Virus record (IMG/VR): IMGVR_UViG_2541047680_000004
Length of the DNA stretch: 64,000 nucleotides
DNA from: a virus
Taxonomy: Duplodnaviria; Heunggongvirae; Uroviricota; Caudoviricetes
Reading direction: 5' to 3' (one strand)
The stretch's first letter is position 1; every line of letters starts with the position of its first letter. Positions 75-9,621 of this stretch are shown here, one piece after another. The notes beneath the pieces are model-generated. The model saw nothing but the letters and a program-made list of their open reading frames with translations, was not told the DNA's origin and did no database searches. The position numbers and the translations under genes are program-made.

Positions 75-434
75 TCAACCTTTCTTCATTAACTCGCGTT
101 TAATTTCATCGGTACGCATCGTGACATCGGCAGCAGTGATCGCCTCGTTCAGCTTCACGATGTCCTCGATTTCCTGCGGTGTCTTCTCCGCAAGATGGAA
201 AATAGCAGCACGAATCACATCAGAGCGGGTGAATTTCTCGAAGCGAGGGATGAACTTCATCATCTCCAGCAGTTCGAAGTATTCGTCTTCCAGTGACATT
301 GTGCGGCTTTTAATTTTCTCTTTGCCACGAGTCGGGCGTCCCTGTGGTCTGACTGGTTGGCGCAAAGGAGTTGTGTTCTTAGCCGGTGCATCAGGCTCTT
401 TGCGCTTTGCTAGGTCACCCATTTTCATGGACAT
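75..434 (-). CDS. putative partition partner protein (ParG/ParB-like candidate) downstream of ParA
   Basis: 119-aa ORF whose start overlaps the ParA stop by 1 nt; basic N-terminus; called from operon position, not from a recognised motif. Confidence 0.4.
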   Translation of the reverse strand: MSMKMGDLAKRKEPDAPAKNTTPLRQPVRPQGRPTRGKEKIKSRTMSLEDEYFELLEMMKFIPRFEKFTRSDVIRAAIFHLAEKTPQEIEDIVKLNEAITAADVTMRTDEIKRELMKKG

Positions 435-1102
435 TATTCTTCTTCCTCCAGACTCAACAGATAATCTACAAATTCTTCAAACTCGGCTTCCGCCTTTTTG
501 TCGCGCTCGCTACCGGTCATTTCAAAGATAGAACGACCAGACTCTTCCGCATCATCATAGACGTTGCGGTTATATAGATTGACTGGCGCAGACTCGATGC
601 CAAACGTCTCAACAATCTCTTTAGCCGCCAGAATGCGAGACACTTGTGATGGCAAAGCCGGGCACTGGTTCATGACCGCGCGGACCTTCACTTTATCGTT
701 TACATTACGAACATTGTCGATAATAGGATCGATGTCACGCAGAGATTTCAAATCACGACGCTTAGGACGAAGCGGGATAATGATAACGTCGGCCATCAGC
801 ATCGCTTGTCGCTGAATTTCGGAGTCAAAGCCACCAGCATCTACCACTACATACTCAGCTCTACCCTGAAGCGATTTTAGGTGCTTAATGATGTCATCCT
901 GAACGTATGCAAAAGGAATCAGCTCAAGGTCTTCGTTCTGTCGACGGTCTTCACACCAGCTCGTTGTCGTGCGCTGAATATCTATATCGGTGATATAAAC
1001 CTTCTTCTTCTTTTTGACTTTCAGGCAAACGGCAATTTGCTGGGCTACGGTGGATTTGCCTGGCCCGCCCTTTGTGCCGCCAACCACAAAGATCTTGGTC
1101 AT
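434..1102 (-). CDS. parA: ParA/Soj-family partition ATPase (small, type Ib-like)
   Basis: 222 aa; deviant Walker A GGTKGGPGKST near N-terminus; acidic C-terminal tail. Confidence 0.8.
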   Translation of the reverse strand: MTKIFVVGGTKGGPGKSTVAQQIAVCLKVKKKKKVYITDIDIQRTTTSWCEDRRQNEDLELIPFAYVQDDIIKHLKSLQGRAEYVVVDAGGFDSEIQRQAMLMADVIIIPLRPKRRDLKSLRDIDPIIDNVRNVNDKVKVRAVMNQCPALPSQVSRILAAKEIVETFGIESAPVNLYNRNVYDDAEESGRSIFEMTGSERDKKAEAEFEEFVDYLLSLEEEE

Positions 1103-1225
1103 TGGAGAGTTCCCTTTGCGTATATAATTATCGTCTGAAACAACTTGTTTTCTTATATGTGATATAGCCTAAATGCCTACGGCTGTGGTGTAAAGGTTTA
1201 ATGATAGGTACATAGGTGGGCTTAA

Positions 1226-1250
1226 TAACAAAAAACCCGCCGTAGCGGGT
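1226..1250 (-). terminator. rho-independent terminator after gene 1251..2024
   Basis: stem ACCCGC/GCGGGT with loop CGTA, flanked by an A-run on plus strand (U-run on minus-strand RNA) directly after the stop. Confidence 0.55.
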
Positions 1251-2024
1251 TTATTGATTCATAGATCGTTTACTCAGAATGTTCACTATATGAGTACAAG
1301 CACCTGGGGTGAGATTGATTTTATTAGTCCCCCACTCTTCACGTCTTCGCATCTGGCCTCCGTCAGACTTACCGATATCCCACGGAATAAAACCACTTAC
1401 GCCACAGGCATCCTCACCCAATTCCTCTATAAAATTTTCGTTCTTCGTATCGTAAATTTCGACCAGTCCATGTTTGCGCATACTCACAGCCCAAAGAGTT
1501 GCGCCTTTTATCGTCTGTAACGTATCGCAAACCAAGTACTGATACTTATCTACGAGATAAAGGTAAGCAAAACTTGCGATGCCTAATCCCATATAATCAG
1601 CATGAGTAAAAACCCCTCTAATCTGCTTGGCGCTGACTTTTACTCCAGATTTATCCTTGATTGGAAACTCGCAGTAGGCCACGCGGAAGACTGTTTGGAC
1701 TGGCTGCCCCACATGCAACTTGTAGGATTCAATTTCTGCTCCTATCTCAAGAGGTGTGTAACCAGCACGTTTGAGTCGCTTAACTTCCTGCTCTTGGTAA
1801 TCAGGATCACATGACTCAAGACACTCGCCAACAATACAGCGTTCATAGGCCGAATCAACAAGCTCGTATTCGGTAAATCGAATTAGATCGAAACCTCGGG
1901 AGATAAAATAGAACTCACCGAGAGCGATAATTCTCGTCGCTCTCGGCATTTCAGACAAGACCTTGCTGTAGTCTTCTATTTCAGGGATTAATCTGTTCGC
2001 CTGACCAATTAGAGATGGTGCCAT
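1251..2024 (-). CDS. hypothetical protein, possible acetyltransferase-like C-terminal half
   Basis: 257-aa ORF; segment YMGLGIASFAYLYL loosely resembles a GNAT glycine-rich motif; weak. Confidence 0.35.
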   Translation of the reverse strand: MAPSLIGQANRLIPEIEDYSKVLSEMPRATRIIALGEFYFISRGFDLIRFTEYELVDSAYERCIVGECLESCDPDYQEQEVKRLKRAGYTPLEIGAEIESYKLHVGQPVQTVFRVAYCEFPIKDKSGVKVSAKQIRGVFTHADYMGLGIASFAYLYLVDKYQYLVCDTLQTIKGATLWAVSMRKHGLVEIYDTKNENFIEELGEDACGVSGFIPWDIGKSDGGQMRRREEWGTNKINLTPGACTHIVNILSKRSMNQ

Positions 2025-2428
2025 GAAGTATTCTGTGCCGTTGATGGTTCCATATCATCGATTTTACAGAATTTCTTCATAAAAGACTCTACAACTTGTT
2101 TGATTCGTGAAGAAATATCACGATCTAAACACTTCAAGTCAGGATATTGTTCAGCAACATCTAAAACAAAAGAGGTTCGTTTACCGTTAGCGACAACCTC
2201 GGCCAACGGTTTAACCAGTGACGTAGAATTAGAGACCTTTTCGGCACGCGCCACATCGCTCTTAAAAGTGACGATGAAGTGCTGGCGGTTAGCTGATTCA
2301 CGGCACAACATACGTCGCACTTCTACTGCGTCTTCACTGTTGTGAATACGCATAGGAAAGCTGTCGATAACCGCAGTATTGGTGCGGATCGTCTGCATAG
2401 AACGCGTATTGTCATGATAATTTAGCAT
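2009..2428 (-). CDS. hypothetical protein
   Basis: 139-aa ORF overlapping the downstream gene by 16 nt; no motif recognised. Confidence 0.35.
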   Translation of the reverse strand: MLNYHDNTRSMQTIRTNTAVIDSFPMRIHNSEDAVEVRRMLCRESANRQHFIVTFKSDVARAEKVSNSTSLVKPLAEVVANGKRTSFVLDVAEQYPDLKCLDRDISSRIKQVVESFMKKFCKIDDMEPSTAQNTSWHHL

Positions 2429-2637
2429 ATATCCACCTTAGCCGTTAACACAAGTGTCATTGCGGCACCCCTCTCGGGGTTGAAGGCTACGAGAATGCGT
2501 AGCCTGTATGTGCCCACTTACGTGGATGCCTAATAAATCTACATCAAATTACTAAATGATTCAACATGAGCTTGAGTGAACAGGCGTGTATATGAGTGAA
2601 GATGCCATCTTTAGGATAAAAGGTAAACTGAGATCAA

Positions 2638-2874
2638 TCATCGACTCAGTTCAGGTGCCCCCCACTCACACAGCCTTTCACCTATCGTATTGTGGATAAG
2701 CAACTGTCGCTCCGTTTCCTCAGTCATAAAATCCTCTCTACTCACATAGATAGGATTTGCAGCATCGCAGAATAGCACGCCTGGAGCCTGCGTCTTAATC
2801 ACGCACCCATTTATCAAACAGCTCGCGATGAACACCAGAGGCATCTTTTTGCCGCACTTCATTAACCGTTTCAT
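2638..2874 (-). CDS. putative o-spanin (Rz1-like lipoprotein), overlapped architecture
   Basis: alternate frame overlapping the 3' part of the Rz-like ORF; short signal-like segment ending IASC (lipobox-like); start codon uncertain. Confidence 0.3.
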   Translation of the reverse strand: MKRLMKCGKKMPLVFIASCLINGCVIKTQAPGVLFCDAANPIYVSREDFMTEETERQLLIHNTIGERLCEWGAPELSR

Positions 2875-3046
2875 TTTTGACATCCACTGTGCTTTGAAGT
2901 CGTTTTCTGTCTTCCTGTTTTGCCTTCTCTTCCATTGCTCGTCGCGCCGCATTCCCGCCCATCGTGTAAGCGCCGACCAGAACGAAAAGAACGGCAGCCA
3001 GCGTAATCAAAGCAACTTTTAGCTTTGTCATCAGGCTGCCTAGCAT
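2795..3046 (-). CDS. putative i-spanin (Rz-like)
   Basis: 83 aa; N-terminal TM helix LKVALITLAAVLFVLVGAY followed by charged coiled-coil-like region; last gene of lysis cassette. Confidence 0.5.
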   Translation of the reverse strand: MLGSLMTKLKVALITLAAVLFVLVGAYTMGGNAARRAMEEKAKQEDRKRLQSTVDVKNETVNEVRQKDASGVHRELFDKWVRD

Positions 3047-3047
3047 A

Positions 3048-3740
3048 TTAGACCATCCCTTTCTGGTGTTTTCTTACCTGCGACCAGGCAATGAATCCTG
3101 CCACAACAATAGTGGCAATACCGAAGATGATGCGTACTGTATCCCCGCTAGAGATATGACCTTGTGCTTTATCCATAGCAGCGGAAACCTGTGGCATAAC
3201 ATCGGCCAGCTGTGCCAGACCAATACCTGCTGTAACAGTTGCGCCTGCGGTTTCTTTAGTTACAGGAACAGCCTTCACGGTTTTCACCGGCTTAACGACG
3301 CCAGCTCGACGCAGACCTTCCTCAATAACTTCTGCCGCATACCAGGTGTTCAGCGTTTTTAGCGGACCTCGCCCATTCTCATGGCGAATGATTGCCTCAA
3401 CCAAAGGTCGAAGGATGTCGTAATCATGCAGATCGATGATCATGTCTGCGGTTACACCAACGGCTTTAGACACCTCATTAATGTAGGCGTCAGTGTTGTT
3501 TTCATTCGGCGGTGCCCAACGTTCAATAACTTCACGAATGGTATCGATACTTGAGCCGTCTTTTGCGCGACGTTTGTCGTGGTAGGTAATTAGAGTCACC
3601 GCCAGCGCACGAATCCCCCAAACAGGGTCTTTAAACGTGCAAAAGCGCGGTTCGTCTGGATTCGCAACCAGACCTTGCCACGGTGATCCTTTATCAAGAT
3701 TACCGGGGTTATTATTACGAATGCCTCTCGGAGTCTTCAT
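3048..3740 (-). CDS. putative endolysin (peptidoglycan hydrolase) with C-terminal hydrophobic segment
   Basis: start placed at MKTPRG with RBS AGGAGA; motif IRNNNPGNL near N-terminus; C-terminal TM-like IIFGIATIVVAGFIAW; position between holin-like gene and spanins. Confidence 0.5.
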   Translation of the reverse strand: MKTPRGIRNNNPGNLDKGSPWQGLVANPDEPRFCTFKDPVWGIRALAVTLITYHDKRRAKDGSSIDTIREVIERWAPPNENNTDAYINEVSKAVGVTADMIIDLHDYDILRPLVEAIIRHENGRGPLKTLNTWYAAEVIEEGLRRAGVVKPVKTVKAVPVTKETAGATVTAGIGLAQLADVMPQVSAAMDKAQGHISSGDTVRIIFGIATIVVAGFIAWSQVRKHQKGMV

Positions 3741-3753
3741 CCTTGATCTCCTG

Positions 3754-4089
3754 TTATTGCAGTCCATTTTTTACGCCATACGCGGCTAACCCCAAAAGCA
3801 GTGCAGTAATAATGAACGACGTTATTTTAGAAACAATGCCGCCAAAGAACCCACTGGAGATGGAATCTAACCGGTTAAGGAGTTTGTCCAGATTGGAGTG
3901 TTGAATACTATGTTGCGCCGGGGTCATATCACCAAAGTAGGTTTTCAGCTGATCATTGACCTCTTGGCCAATTTCTTCACGTAGCTCTTTACCTAATTTA
4001 CCAACAACCTCCCGAGCAACGATCGCGGCAATACGCTCAACTTGCTCTGTTGTAACGCCCGCCATCTCGTTCGACATATTTTCCTCCAT
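3754..4089 (-). CDS. holin-like small membrane protein
   Basis: 111 aa with C-terminal TM segment ITSFIITALLLGLAAYGV; first gene of lysis cassette. Confidence 0.35.
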   Translation of the reverse strand: MEENMSNEMAGVTTEQVERIAAIVAREVVGKLGKELREEIGQEVNDQLKTYFGDMTPAQHSIQHSNLDKLLNRLDSISSGFFGGIVSKITSFIITALLLGLAAYGVKNGLQ

Positions 4090-4140: not shown

Positions 4141-4160
4141 TAGGTGTGTGCTTACCTATC
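4141..4160. promoter_or_regulatory. family-2 dyad-like motif (TAGGT..CTTACCTATC)
   Basis: shares the TTACCTATC word with sites at 30062, 56083 and 62343; intergenic between lipoprotein and holin genes. Confidence 0.3.
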
Positions 4161-4389
4161 ATTCAGCATTGCAACGGACTGATGAGAAAGCACCTACTCC
4201 AACCCATCGCCAGTTATAGATGCTACCCGCTTTGTATAAGGTATAGTCGTTCACTTTTTTAACAGCATATATGGGTATGACTGTCTCCTGTCCACCAATG
4301 ATAGCCTCACCATAACATATAGGTGTCGGCAATTTCTGGCAGCCAGTAAGAGAGAGAACAACAGCTATTGTTAGAAATAATCTTTTCAT
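4159..4389 (-). CDS. small lipoprotein
   Basis: 76 aa; signal peptide MKRLFLTIAVVLSLTGC with lipobox LTGC. Confidence 0.5.
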   Translation of the reverse strand: MKRLFLTIAVVLSLTGCQKLPTPICYGEAIIGGQETVIPIYAVKKVNDYTLYKAGSIYNWRWVGVGAFSSVRCNAE

Positions 4390-5322: not shown

Positions 5323-8300
5323 TTATTCTTTAGGTGAATTTAACTTCGTTTCAAGCTCCTCAACCCTTTTGGTCAATTGCTGAATATGATGAATGAGTGG
5401 TACAACCAAACGCTCATACATCACTCCTTCAGCGACCATACCATTTGAGGAAATATCTCCTGGAGAATCATTATTTGTTGGTTCACGCCAATGGACATAT
5501 TGCGGGGCAATCTCACCAACCTCTTCAGCAATAAGGCCGTAATACCCCCAATCCTTTCGGTCACCTCGACAAATTGAACGATACCAAACAGGTCTTAATG
5601 ACAAAAGTTCATCAGCATATCGATCTTGTAATGTTTCAATATCCTTTTTATAGCGCCTTGAAGATGTTGAACGCCAAACTGTATTGATACCTGGGTTTGG
5701 ATCAATGTACATATTGGCACCGCTAGTAGTTGTGCCAATATCCCATATAGCAAACCCTCCACTACCGCCTGATTTGACAACCAGTGTTTCAGCAATAATA
5801 TCCAGGTTGCCACTATAGCCTGTCAGTGATGATCTGCTTGCATAGGAACTTAGAAGGTTTGTTACCTCTGTTTTCGTATAAGCATTAAGGTTAGCCGCAG
5901 TCAAAGTAATATCGGCAGAGCCATCAAACGCCACACCAGCAATTTTCCTTGCTGTCTGCAATTTTGTGGCTGTTGCGGCATTACCAGTAGTATTCTGATT
6001 ACCGGTTGTATTCACACCAGGGATTGAATCCTTAGCGGTATATACCTGCGCCCACGCTGACCATGCCGCATCAGTGGTATCTCTTCTGGAGCGAATGAAA
6101 ACCGGCGCATGTGCACCGCTCGTACCACTCCAGCCAATAAGCAACTCGCCCTCACCAGCAGCACTCGCACCTTTCATGTGCAATACGTTGCCATACGTGG
6201 TCGGGTAGCTATTGTTGTACGCCTCGTACATTTGAATGCCAGCAGTACCTTGAGTAGAACCGCTTAAAGCCGTAACTCGACCACGAGAAACCAATGTATT
6301 AATATTGATATCACCTGAACCATCAAACTTAACACCATTGATGTTTCTCGCTGTTTGCAACTTCGTAGCTGTTGAAGCATTGCCATTCAAGCTACCATTT
6401 ACGCCACCAGTAACATTTAGTCCATTACCAATAGACACAACACCGCTGCTATTATTAATTATAATCGGTCGCAAACTGTTCCATGAACCTAACGTATCTC
6501 CTGATGCTGTTAGCATGAAATATGTGCTGCCGCCGTCATTACGGATAAAGAACCCGTAGTTACCGTAAGCAATGCGGAAACCATTTGCATATTTTGAAAC
6601 GATCTCACCAGAAGACGTCAACCCTCCAGATAATGTGCCACCTGAAAGCGGTAATGCTCCTACATCAGAAGCTGTTGGTTTGTTTCTAGTGTTATAAGAA
6701 CGACGCCAGCCTGGCGCATAATCACTCCCATTGTACACATAAATAAATTCCGCATTATTAACACCACCATGACCTGATGTTGTTGCCGTTGTAACACGAA
6801 TAGTGTAGTGGCTTGTTGCCTTATTACTAAACACCTCAATCACGGAACCAGATAGATCGATCCTACCGCAACCAGTGTCGTCTATATAATTATTGTTGGC
6901 GTAAGTCCATGAGCACCGTGCGATCCAATGTTTGTTTGTAAATGCCCCCTGATTGTTTAGCCAAGTTATAAATTGAGCAGTCGTAAATGCCGTTCCGTTA
7001 CCACTATTTAACCATCCAGCGGCAGCGGTTGGTGCGTTTATATCAGCCGGCTGAGGCATAAATCCAGTCGTGTAAACCTGCTCCCAACCACTTTCAAAAC
7101 CATAGCCATCTCTTGAGGAACGGTAGAACAGACCACCATTTTTATAGTGAGCTTTAATTTGAAGCGTACGGCAACTACCTACACCGGTATAAAAGTTGGC
7201 AAGAATATAACTGGCGCCTGTTCTAGTTACATTGTAAGCACCAGATTCAGCATTCCACGGCACGCCACCATCAGCATCCGCATATGACCCTGTTGCCCTT
7301 CTTGCGAAAGCGGCAACATGCGCAGCGGTTAAAGTGATATCAGTAGAACCATCAAATGGAACACCGGATATTTTTCTTGCAGTCTGAAGTTTTGTAGCAG
7401 TTGCAGCATTACCAGTGGTGTTCTGATTACCCGTAGTGTTTACACCTGGAAGGTTGATATTTGCAGAACCGTCGAAACCAACTCCACCGATAGATCTTGC
7501 CGTCTGCAATTTCGTTGCTGTACTTGCATTACCATTTAATGTTCCGGTGATCCCACCAGTAACAGACAACGGACCTGAAACTGTTCCTCCGGTTGTTGGC
7601 AGTGCTCCAATATCTAACGGCGTCGGTTTCTGATGTGTGCTATACATCGTATAAACAACACCATCGGTAACGCTGGAAGGCTTACTCGCTGAATATGTTG
7701 GCGATGTATAAACAGAAACTGACGCATTTGCAGTACAATCCCAATGGATATTTACACTCGTCGCATAATTGCCAATTTCAACGTAAATATCATATGTATC
7801 GCCGGATGTGTTGATCCAGGCGAAATTCGTTAATCCGACAGCTGTACGCTTCCACAAAGCACCTGTAATCCCTTTGGGGTTTCCATTGCCTGCTCGTAGA
7901 ACCAGTTCTGAAATGCCTGCCTGATGTGGGGAGCCGACGTTGTAACCAGCGCCACCAATCAATGCGATGTAAACGATGGAACTCGCTTGTGGCATTGTAA
8001 CAGTAGCCAGTTTGAACCACCCGGCCCCGCCAGAGAAAGACATCGTTATTGAATTTAAAGTACCAATATCTTTCGGCGTTAATGTGATATCCGCAGTCAG
8101 TGCTTTCCCGTTAATTTTTCGGTTAGATGGCACCCTGCTGTTCGCATTGTCATTGACTACTTTAACTGCTTTTGGCGTTGCGGCCAGCGATTCACTGGTG
8201 CTGTCGACAGCACTGCTAAGTTTCACAACACCTTTAGTTGTAAGGCTTGCGTCTTCCATCGCAACTGCACCGGCAATCTCTTCAGCACGATCAGCAGCAG

Positions 8301-9621
8301 CTTCCGCACGGGTCGCAGCGGATTCAGCAGCAGTTTTGCTCTGAGATGCTGCCGTCGCACTGCCTGCCGCCTCTGTTGCTTTCGTGGATGCCGTCGTGGC
8401 GCTGCCCTTCGCTGCTGACGCCTGTCTGGTCGCCTCATCTTTTGAAGCAGACGCAGATGATGCCGATGACGCTGCCGAACTGGCGGACGATGCGGCTGCC
8501 GTTTTTGAGGATTCTGCACGGGTTTCCGACGCTTTCGCGTTCGTTTCGGATGTCTTCGCTGCGGAAGCAGACCTCGCTGCTGCGCTGGCCTGTTCAGTGG
8601 CTTCGCCAGCCTTCGTTGTGGCTGTTGAAGCAGATGATGCGGCACTTTCTGCCGATTTTCCGGCGGCGGTGGCACTGGCTGAGGCCTGCCCGGCACTTGT
8701 TGACGCGGCACTGGCAGACGACGCAGCCGCTGTTTTTGAGCCTGCCGCAGCCGAGGCGCTCTGTCCCGCTGCCGTTTCAGAAGACCTGGCGTTCGTCTCG
8801 GACGTTTTTGCCGCCTTCGCGGAATTTCCTGCCGCCGTTGCCGAGGAAGCGGCATTACTGGCGCTCGAGGCTGCGCTCGTTTCTGATGATTTCGCTGCCT
8901 CTTTTGAGGCCGCCGCATCCCGGGCTGAGGTGGCAGCTTCTGACGCCTTCGTGGTCGCGGTGGATGCAGAAGTGGCTGCAGATTTTTGTGACGCTGCAGC
9001 ATTCGTTTCAGACGTTTTCGCGGCACCGGCACTGGTGGCCGCCGCGCTTTTTGAGGACTCTGCAGCGGATGCACTTTGAGACGCTTGAGAGGCTTTTTCT
9101 CCAGCGGTATTGGCGCTTTCTGCTGCTGCGGCAGCACTGGCCGCCGCCTCACGAGCTTTGTCGCCAGCAGCATCAATCGCGTCAGTGTTATTTTTATACC
9201 ACTCAACGTTTTCGTTGTGCTCGTTGACGATCTGCATTAGCGGCTTAACGGTCACTTCTGTACCGTCTTCACGCTCGATTGTCACCTCATCCAGAGCAGT
9301 CAACCAACTGCGCATGGACTTGGAATCAGCCGACATACGCGACATTAGTGCTGTAAAGCGCGCGCTAAACTGTGTTAAGTCGCCTTCATAGGTCGTAATG
9401 ATTCGGCACGGAACTTCAGACTGAGTTTCGCCGGTATAGGGTTCTGAGAGAACAATGTTCGTATCACTGGTTACGCGCTTGATCTCATACAGCTTATTGT
9501 CGGGGCCAATGACGATCATCCCCGGCAACACACCATTAGCTGTTACGTTCCAGGCTGTCCCTGCCCCAACCAGAGTATTGCTGCCCTGTGTAAATGTGAT
9601 AGTACCTTCCCTGTACCACAT
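5323..9621 (-). CDS. side tail fiber with C-terminal intramolecular-chaperone (S74-type) domain
   Basis: 1432 aa; tail-fiber motifs GVVKLSSAVDSTSESLAATPKAVK and repeated NGNASTATKLQTAR blocks; C-terminal chaperone-like segment (KKDIETLQDRYADELL...YGLIAEEV); long Ala/Ser-rich tract. Confidence 0.85.
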   Translation of the reverse strand: MWYREGTITFTQGSNTLVGAGTAWNVTANGVLPGMIVIGPDNKLYEIKRVTSDTNIVLSEPYTGETQSEVPCRIITTYEGDLTQFSARFTALMSRMSADSKSMRSWLTALDEVTIEREDGTEVTVKPLMQIVNEHNENVEWYKNNTDAIDAAGDKAREAAASAAAAAESANTAGEKASQASQSASAAESSKSAAATSAGAAKTSETNAAASQKSAATSASTATTKASEAATSARDAAASKEAAKSSETSAASSASNAASSATAAGNSAKAAKTSETNARSSETAAGQSASAAAGSKTAAASSASAASTSAGQASASATAAGKSAESAASSASTATTKAGEATEQASAAARSASAAKTSETNAKASETRAESSKTAAASSASSAASSASSASASKDEATRQASAAKGSATTASTKATEAAGSATAASQSKTAAESAATRAEAAADRAEEIAGAVAMEDASLTTKGVVKLSSAVDSTSESLAATPKAVKVVNDNANSRVPSNRKINGKALTADITLTPKDIGTLNSITMSFSGGAGWFKLATVTMPQASSIVYIALIGGAGYNVGSPHQAGISELVLRAGNGNPKGITGALWKRTAVGLTNFAWINTSGDTYDIYVEIGNYATSVNIHWDCTANASVSVYTSPTYSASKPSSVTDGVVYTMYSTHQKPTPLDIGALPTTGGTVSGPLSVTGGITGTLNGNASTATKLQTARSIGGVGFDGSANINLPGVNTTGNQNTTGNAATATKLQTARKISGVPFDGSTDITLTAAHVAAFARRATGSYADADGGVPWNAESGAYNVTRTGASYILANFYTGVGSCRTLQIKAHYKNGGLFYRSSRDGYGFESGWEQVYTTGFMPQPADINAPTAAAGWLNSGNGTAFTTAQFITWLNNQGAFTNKHWIARCSWTYANNNYIDDTGCGRIDLSGSVIEVFSNKATSHYTIRVTTATTSGHGGVNNAEFIYVYNGSDYAPGWRRSYNTRNKPTASDVGALPLSGGTLSGGLTSSGEIVSKYANGFRIAYGNYGFFIRNDGGSTYFMLTASGDTLGSWNSLRPIIINNSSGVVSIGNGLNVTGGVNGSLNGNASTATKLQTARNINGVKFDGSGDININTLVSRGRVTALSGSTQGTAGIQMYEAYNNSYPTTYGNVLHMKGASAAGEGELLIGWSGTSGAHAPVFIRSRRDTTDAAWSAWAQVYTAKDSIPGVNTTGNQNTTGNAATATKLQTARKIAGVAFDGSADITLTAANLNAYTKTEVTNLLSSYASRSSLTGYSGNLDIIAETLVVKSGGSGGFAIWDIGTTTSGANMYIDPNPGINTVWRSTSSRRYKKDIETLQDRYADELLSLRPVWYRSICRGDRKDWGYYGLIAEEVGEIAPQYVHWREPTNNDSPGDISSNGMVAEGVMYERLVVPLIHHIQQLTKRVEELETKLNSPKE
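8290..9175 (-). repeat. low-complexity Ala/Ser/Thr-rich coding repeats inside tail fiber gene
   Basis: recurring KTSETNA / SASAA units in translation; GC-rich repetitive codons create long spurious ORFs in other frames. Confidence 0.7.

Follow-up and report, generated by a model that had tools for sequence, protein, structure and literature searches.

A mobile two-gene module encoding a divergent GNAT-fold protein behind a conserved structured leader in SSU5-type phage-plasmids

The stretch of 64,000 nucleotides from the IMG/VR virus record IMGVR_UViG_2541047680_000004 (the window) is an SSU5-type phage-plasmid of Escherichia coli, and this study concerns a two-gene unit on its minus strand. 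The upstream gene, A (2428-2009), encodes a protein of 139 amino acids (aa) and the downstream gene, B (2024-1251), one of 257 aa. The open reading frame (ORF) list confirmed the 16-nt overlap between them (2009..2024, ATGGCACCATCTCTAA) that a first-pass annotation of the letters alone had described, with the stop of A lying over the start of B. The same annotation had given the unit its own intrinsic terminator and had placed it between partition and lysis modules, and both statements held. A terminator scan found the hairpin AAACCCGCTACGGCGGGTTT followed by the T run TTTGTTATTA at 1252->1233 (feature 1226..1252, minus strand); the hairpin overlaps the stop codon of B and closes the unit ahead of the par operon. 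Downstream of B lie parA (434..1102; Pfam AAA_31/MipZ/CbiA, phrog_164) and a small partner gene, and upstream of A lie two Rz-like spanin genes (2795..3046 and 2638..2952) and an endolysin gene (3048..3767). Over positions 1100 to 2700, identity to pECOH89 and about 17 other plasmids is 99.9%; the sequences flanking A and B have matches in 266 plasmid records. The two proteins belong to phrog_2594 (A, E 1e-35) and phrog_3307 (B, E 2e-54), families whose function is uncharacterised. Since both genes have PHROG membership, are annotated in at least 18 near-identical plasmids and have diverged homologues that keep the gene order at other loci, A and B are real genes and not chance ORFs.

At the overlap, B has no Shine-Dalgarno (SD) sequence of its own. 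The identical 16-nt overlap recurs in pAVS0968-B, Dickeya, Erwinia and a Klebsiella plasmid, and the N-terminal MAPxL of B is invariant. We propose that the overlap is a site of translational coupling. Hairpin and T-run terminators similar or analogous to that of the window follow B in SSU5, pAVS0968-B, Dickeya, the Klebsiella plasmid and an Acinetobacter plasmid, and none was visible after B at the Erwinia locus.

The pair is a self-contained, horizontally mobile module. By tblastn, 370 plasmid records have a match to A and 374 a match to B. In SSU5 and pAVS0968-B the pair again lies between par and lysis, with 32-61% identity to A and 29-37% to B of the window. Between the window and pAVS0968-B, backbone identity of 97-98% extends as far as positions 1209 and 2421, and the DNA in between shows no similarity; exactly A, B and the terminator (window 1210-2420) have been replaced as a block, and the leader upstream of A has been kept. 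Outside SSU5-type elements, lone A/B islets occur in a Dickeya chromosome, flanked by genes for a pilT-like ATPase and an amidohydrolase, and in the Erwinia pyrifoliae chromosome, between rep and a ppx/gppA homologue, genes that adjoin each other in E. coli K-12. The pair also lies between IS5 copies on a Klebsiella IncFIB/HI1B plasmid, adjoins the integrase in lambdoid PhiR12 phages, and is carried by Acinetobacter plasmids that include the 9-kb OXA-72 plasmid pAba9201a. The same pair was seen both in this small, mobilisable A. baumannii plasmid (L258 6946-8019) and in Acinetobacter plasmids of about 110 kb. A search for related loci by peptide patterns in genome contigs returned only two loci.

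Upstream of A, we found a nucleotide stretch that is conserved among loci whose proteins are only about 30% identical. It corresponds to a structured 5′ leader of roughly 100 nt (2429..2529, minus strand) with several hairpins. Because a relaxed 14-base leader pattern gave mostly chance matches in metagenome and viral collections, the downstream SD box was required as a filter, which yielded 22 distinct leaders. Read 5′ to 3′ on the minus strand, the leader contains a hairpin that is present in every leader with variable sequence (H0, 2525-2514); a hairpin with the invariant GCATWCTCGTAGCCT, whose loop and 3′ arm are invariant (H1, 2505-2484); a covarying stem (H2, 2480-2467); a GCCG/CGGC stem around a variable hairpin (P3, 2466-2463 pairing with 2444-2441); and the invariant SD box TAAGGTGGA (2440-2432). 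All 22 leaders share the invariant ribosome-binding box CGGCTAAGGTGGA. The 18-nt H1 box CTACGCATWCTCGTAGCC occurs once in the window (2502-2485), with 0 occurrences expected by chance, and each of the 18 loci with this box has A, then B, within 75-165 nt downstream. Over its invariant 15-18 nt, this box is more conserved than the downstream proteins (window; L005 5350-5620, L008 5350-5623 and L013-L023).

The structure of H2 is supported by covariation: the stem is 97% paired, four of its seven pairs are changed on both sides, and the sense strand shows G-U wobbles. For H1 and the long-range stem, which hardly vary in sequence, covariation neither supports nor contradicts the pairing. The hairpin H1 alone was considered as the reason for the invariant box; this account was weakened by lineages in which the 5′ arm varies or mis-pairs beside an unchanged loop and 3′ arm, and by one Klebsiella allele from which H1 is missing altogether. 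The leader of the window has a folding energy of -39.2 kcal/mol (z -3.2), and in both its minimum-energy and centroid folds the 5′ AUCCAC pairs with the SD sequence GUGGAU. Neither this leader nor that of Erwinia matched any Rfam 15 family; the sole Rfam match was a chance-level rsmX at the terminator (20 bits against a gathering score of 56). The leaders of Dickeya and Erwinia carry an insertion of about 70 nt. In Dickeya-type leaders (L005/L018; about 5560-5720 of L005), the segment ending in the SD box is also duplicated internally (GGAGAGG...CCCACGGCTTAGTTG / ...CCCACAGCTAAGGTGG), and a hairpin with UUUU behind it could serve as an attenuator.

Ahead of the leader lies a promoter-like box (2536..2564, minus strand) with a -35 element TTGAAT (2564-2559), a 17-nt spacer and a -10 element TAGATT (2541-2536). 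The pattern TTGNNN-17-TAGATT is conserved over the 22 distinct leaders, and its GTAGATTT core recurs upstream of A in enterobacterial loci and in one Acinetobacter locus. The box is a putative promoter; with matches at only 8 of 12 consensus positions, it was not called by a generic promoter scan.

The first-pass annotation had seen a weak acetyltransferase-like pattern in the C-terminal half of B and had suggested a remote-homology search. The hint holds at the level of the fold, and the evidence supports B as a divergent GNAT-fold protein whose cofactor loop is conserved in part. B has the mixed alpha/beta order of the GNAT fold, beta1-alpha1-alpha2-beta2-4-alpha3-beta5-alpha4-beta6-7, in a core of about residues 62-205 that exceeds the C-terminal half. 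In hhalign, B aligned to P0115, a bona fide weak GNAT protein, with 97% probability, and M145-G-L-G148-I-A150 of B fell on the canonical RGRGLA acetyl-CoA loop. This loop (Q/R-x-x-G-x-G/A, beta4-alpha3) reads R-Q-R-G-L-C in pAVS0968-B, and G148 is about 90% conserved and missing in the SSU5 allele. The family motif LVCD..QTI.GA..WA (residues 164-179) is invariant, as are the polar residues C166, D167, Q170, T171, Y154 and Y191 in the canonical active-site region. A direct profile match was not obtained: B had no Pfam family at E <= 1 and no NCBIfam or PADLOC match. An exhaustive search of 1.8 billion representatives with the B profile found only 64 relatives. The weak tail of these relatives overlaps Pfam Acetyltransf_1 and DUF6934 domains, and the link from B to Acetyltransf_1 is thus indirect, running from the B family profile to proteins that themselves match Acetyltransf_1 weakly. 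Among the weak matches to the B core were giant proteins of 1000-1900 aa (P0099, P0102, P0104, P0112, P0114 and P0118) that contain several GNAT and DUF6934 domains, in one case with a ParB-like nuclease domain, and that resemble polyvalent conflict proteins.

Protein A has a conserved N-terminal motif RS(M/I)QTIR and a variable C-terminus, and it matched no Pfam, NCBIfam or PADLOC model. Against the PADLOC-DB 2.0 defence families at E <= 1, both A and B gave 0 matches. The sole match in a PDB sequence-profile search was a chance CtsR (E 0.4). A showed no detectable homology to B (hhalign probability 0.3%), so the notion of A as a duplicated half of a GNAT protein draws on weak fold matches. 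We propose that A is a neutralising or regulatory partner of B.

The two genes differ in whether they occur alone. A lies directly upstream of B at every B locus inspected, and A also occurs by itself: in D6/RCS47-type P1-like phage-plasmids, an A homologue adjoins hot, humD and phd-doc, and no reading frame there encodes B. In Escherichia and Salmonella, about 100 more plasmid records were matched by A than by B. Five PhiR12 phage genomes have an intact A beside a B that is frameshifted in a T7 run (L004 713-1479, PhiR12_1). This pattern, with A found alone and B never alone, is what a harmless or protective A and a B that depends on it would be expected to give. The orphan A of E. coli pFORC64.1 (IncY; L256 3492-3842) and of phages D6 and RCS47 is a 116-aa member of phrog_2594 with neither B nor leader. 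As for the PhiR12 frameshift, a pseudogene, a sequencing error and programmed slippage are all possible. A 66-aa ORF in PhiR12 was considered as a third component and rejected, as it is the N-terminus of the frameshifted B.

The uncharacterised A/B pair is widespread and clearly modular, and its conserved RNA leader was unexpected. The first-pass annotation had proposed an accessory cassette such as a toxin-antitoxin or modification function, and the analysis bears this out in part. Our preferred interpretation, in which we place slightly less belief than doubt, is that it is a toxin-antitoxin or addiction-type module with B as a GNAT-fold effector and A as a novel neutraliser. This reading is based on the autonomy of the module, the asymmetry between A and B, the replacement of whole blocks of alleles, and the position beside parA, where the unit resembles plasmid addiction modules and by analogy gains support. 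Under this model, transcription would start at the promoter-like box and run through the multi-hairpin leader to the terminator of the unit. The leader would partly occlude the ribosome-binding site and so tune translation; A would be translated first, and B solely through coupling at the 16-nt overlap. B would act as a divergent acyltransferase that uses acyl-CoA to modify an essential or phage-relevant cellular target, and A would bind and neutralise it, perhaps as a degenerate GNAT-like partner or via its conserved N-terminal peptide. On SSU5-type phage-plasmids, a module beside par could stabilise the plasmid prophage, exclude competitors, or both. Selection for A/B pairs that do not cross-react would explain the allelic swaps, which would then mark specificity groups, and the orphan A of D6-type plasmids may be an anti-addiction factor.

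Several observations weigh against this interpretation. No GNAT-toxin or DUF1778 antitoxin model from PADLOC, Pfam or NCBIfam was matched. In B of the window, position 1 of the acetyl-CoA motif is not R/Q, and the position of the catalytic Tyr of GNAT toxins is apparently Ala179, as judged from a motif alignment only; B may for these reasons use other chemistry or be non-catalytic. The predicted structure of A reached only moderate confidence (predicted local distance difference test score, pLDDT, 69), and classical type II autoregulation is not evident because no DNA-binding fold can be recognised in A. In essentially all SSU5-like elements examined, moreover, the module occupies the same site, which is less typical of toxin-antitoxin cassettes.

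The nearest known counterparts are the type II systems that pair a GNAT toxin with an RHH (DUF1778) antitoxin, namely TacAT, AtaRT, KacAT, ItaRT and GmvAT (PMC9177977, PMC6698736, PMC7470980). These share with A/B an upstream gene that overlaps or abuts the GNAT gene in one operon and the GNAT fold of the larger protein. They differ in that a model search found no DUF1778/RHH domain in A and its predicted structure has no such fold; in that their toxins have about 160-180 aa, whereas B has 257 aa with an extra N-terminal beta-hairpin; in the lack of a Pfam GNAT match and the apparent substitution of the catalytic Tyr in B; and in the conserved structured leader of A/B. Because A lacks the DUF1778/RHH domain and B matches no GNAT-toxin model, the module is not a member of the GNAT/RHH family. 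The GNAT toxin of those systems acetylates aminoacyl-tRNA and is neutralised by its partner; for comparable roles of B and A, the orphan A and the frameshifted B are indirect genomic hints. Within the GNAT superfamily, NatD/Naa40 and AAC(2')-Ia have the same fold class as B, but identity is 7-12%, and B is set apart from the superfamily in general by its invariant LVCD..QTI.GA..WA motif and its obligatory pairing with A. P1 phd-doc and other addiction modules of phage-plasmids resemble A/B as small two-gene units near maintenance genes with the antidote gene first (PMC7969092); their protein families are unrelated to A and B, whose function is a prediction. The orphan A of D6-type plasmids lies close to such a phd-doc pair. 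A search of the literature library found no description of the A/B genes, and the papers that it returned on SSU5 and toxin-antitoxin systems treat an unrelated alarmone hydrolase.

The main alternative, which we consider rather unlikely, takes B as a non-toxic conflict or protective GNAT enzyme with A as its specificity or regulatory subunit. The target that B acetylates would then come from the host or a phage or be a small molecule; a defence protein, a component of an invading phage and an antimicrobial are examples. The anti-CRISPR protein AcrVA5 acetylates a defence protein, and the distant B-like domains within giant multi-GNAT/ParB-like proteins fit such a role. This account leaves unexplained, however, why D6-type plasmids, which compete with these elements, keep an orphan A, why a frameshifted B persists beside an intact A, why B would be so strictly coupled to A in translation, as we propose, and why A and B are replaced wholesale; resistance GNATs, moreover, are usually single genes.

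Three further explanations are less likely than both the toxin-antitoxin and the non-toxic enzyme readings. It is quite improbable that B is a catalytically inactive GNAT-fold scaffold and that A and B act by binding only, for instance by regulating or inhibiting a host protein, as antizyme combines a GNAT-like fold with a lack of catalysis: the invariant polar block at the canonical active-site region and the alignment of the loop of B to the RGRGLA of P0115 both suggest a conserved catalytic or ligand site. More improbable again is a reversed polarity with A as the toxin and B as the antidote. In E. coli YjhX(TopAI)/YjhQ, the toxin is reported to be the small upstream protein, which a GNAT-family protein counteracts, and the order of a small gene followed by a larger GNAT-fold gene is the same in A/B; yet a toxin would not be expected to occur alone in D6/RCS47-type plasmids or to remain intact beside the frameshifted B of the five PhiR12 genomes, and both cases argue for the opposite polarity in A/B. 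Least probable of all is a function in the cycle of SSU5-type phages (lysis timing, lysogeny control or a partition accessory) as the last part of a lysis/par cluster, because the conserved lysis-par position in SSU5, pECOH89 and pAVS0968-B and the strand shared with the neighbours are outweighed by the occurrence of pair and leader alone in bacterial chromosomes with no phage genes seen nearby, by the pair on the 9-kb mobilisable Acinetobacter plasmid, and by the promoter-like box and terminator of the unit.

To return to the toxin-antitoxin interpretation, a more specific version, which we regard as speculative and unlikely to be right in full, describes a selfish or defence module of three parts: the GNAT-fold effector B, a degenerate GNAT-like pseudo-enzyme antidote A, and a conserved structured leader RNA that senses or transmits a signal and sets the A:B ratio. 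Rapid allele swaps behind a constant leader would then define exclusion or addiction groups of SSU5-type elements, and the orphan A of D6-type plasmids would serve as an anti-addiction or anti-exclusion factor.

Clinical E. coli, Klebsiella, Enterobacter and Salmonella commonly harbour SSU5-type phage-plasmids, which carry resistance genes such as CTX-M-15. Should A/B prove to be an addiction or exclusion system, it would help to account for the persistence of these elements and the competition between them, would sort them into specificity groups, and would add a new type of antidote and a new RNA leader to the repertoire of GNAT toxins. The presence of the pair on small OXA-72 Acinetobacter plasmids suggests that it serves plasmid maintenance more broadly. 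Should B rather be a protective or anti-defence acetyltransferase, the target that it modifies would be relevant to the biology of phage-host conflict.

Further features were noted outside the A/B unit. A second variable spot lies between a helicase-adjacent gene and par, upstream of the par operon (L001 2176-2931 vs L002 1156-1923), and holds a DUF2971 gene in pECOH89 and an unrelated gene on the opposite strand in pAVS0968-B. On the minus strand of the window, a 76-aa ORF with a lipoprotein signal (LSLTGC; 4159-4389) occupies the position where the SSU5 annotation has a Cor-like superinfection-exclusion protein. Also on the minus strand, a tail-fibre protein of 1432 aa (5323-9621) has repeated 'GNASTATKLQTAR' motifs and, close to the N-terminus, a long low-complexity tract rich in Ala and Ser.
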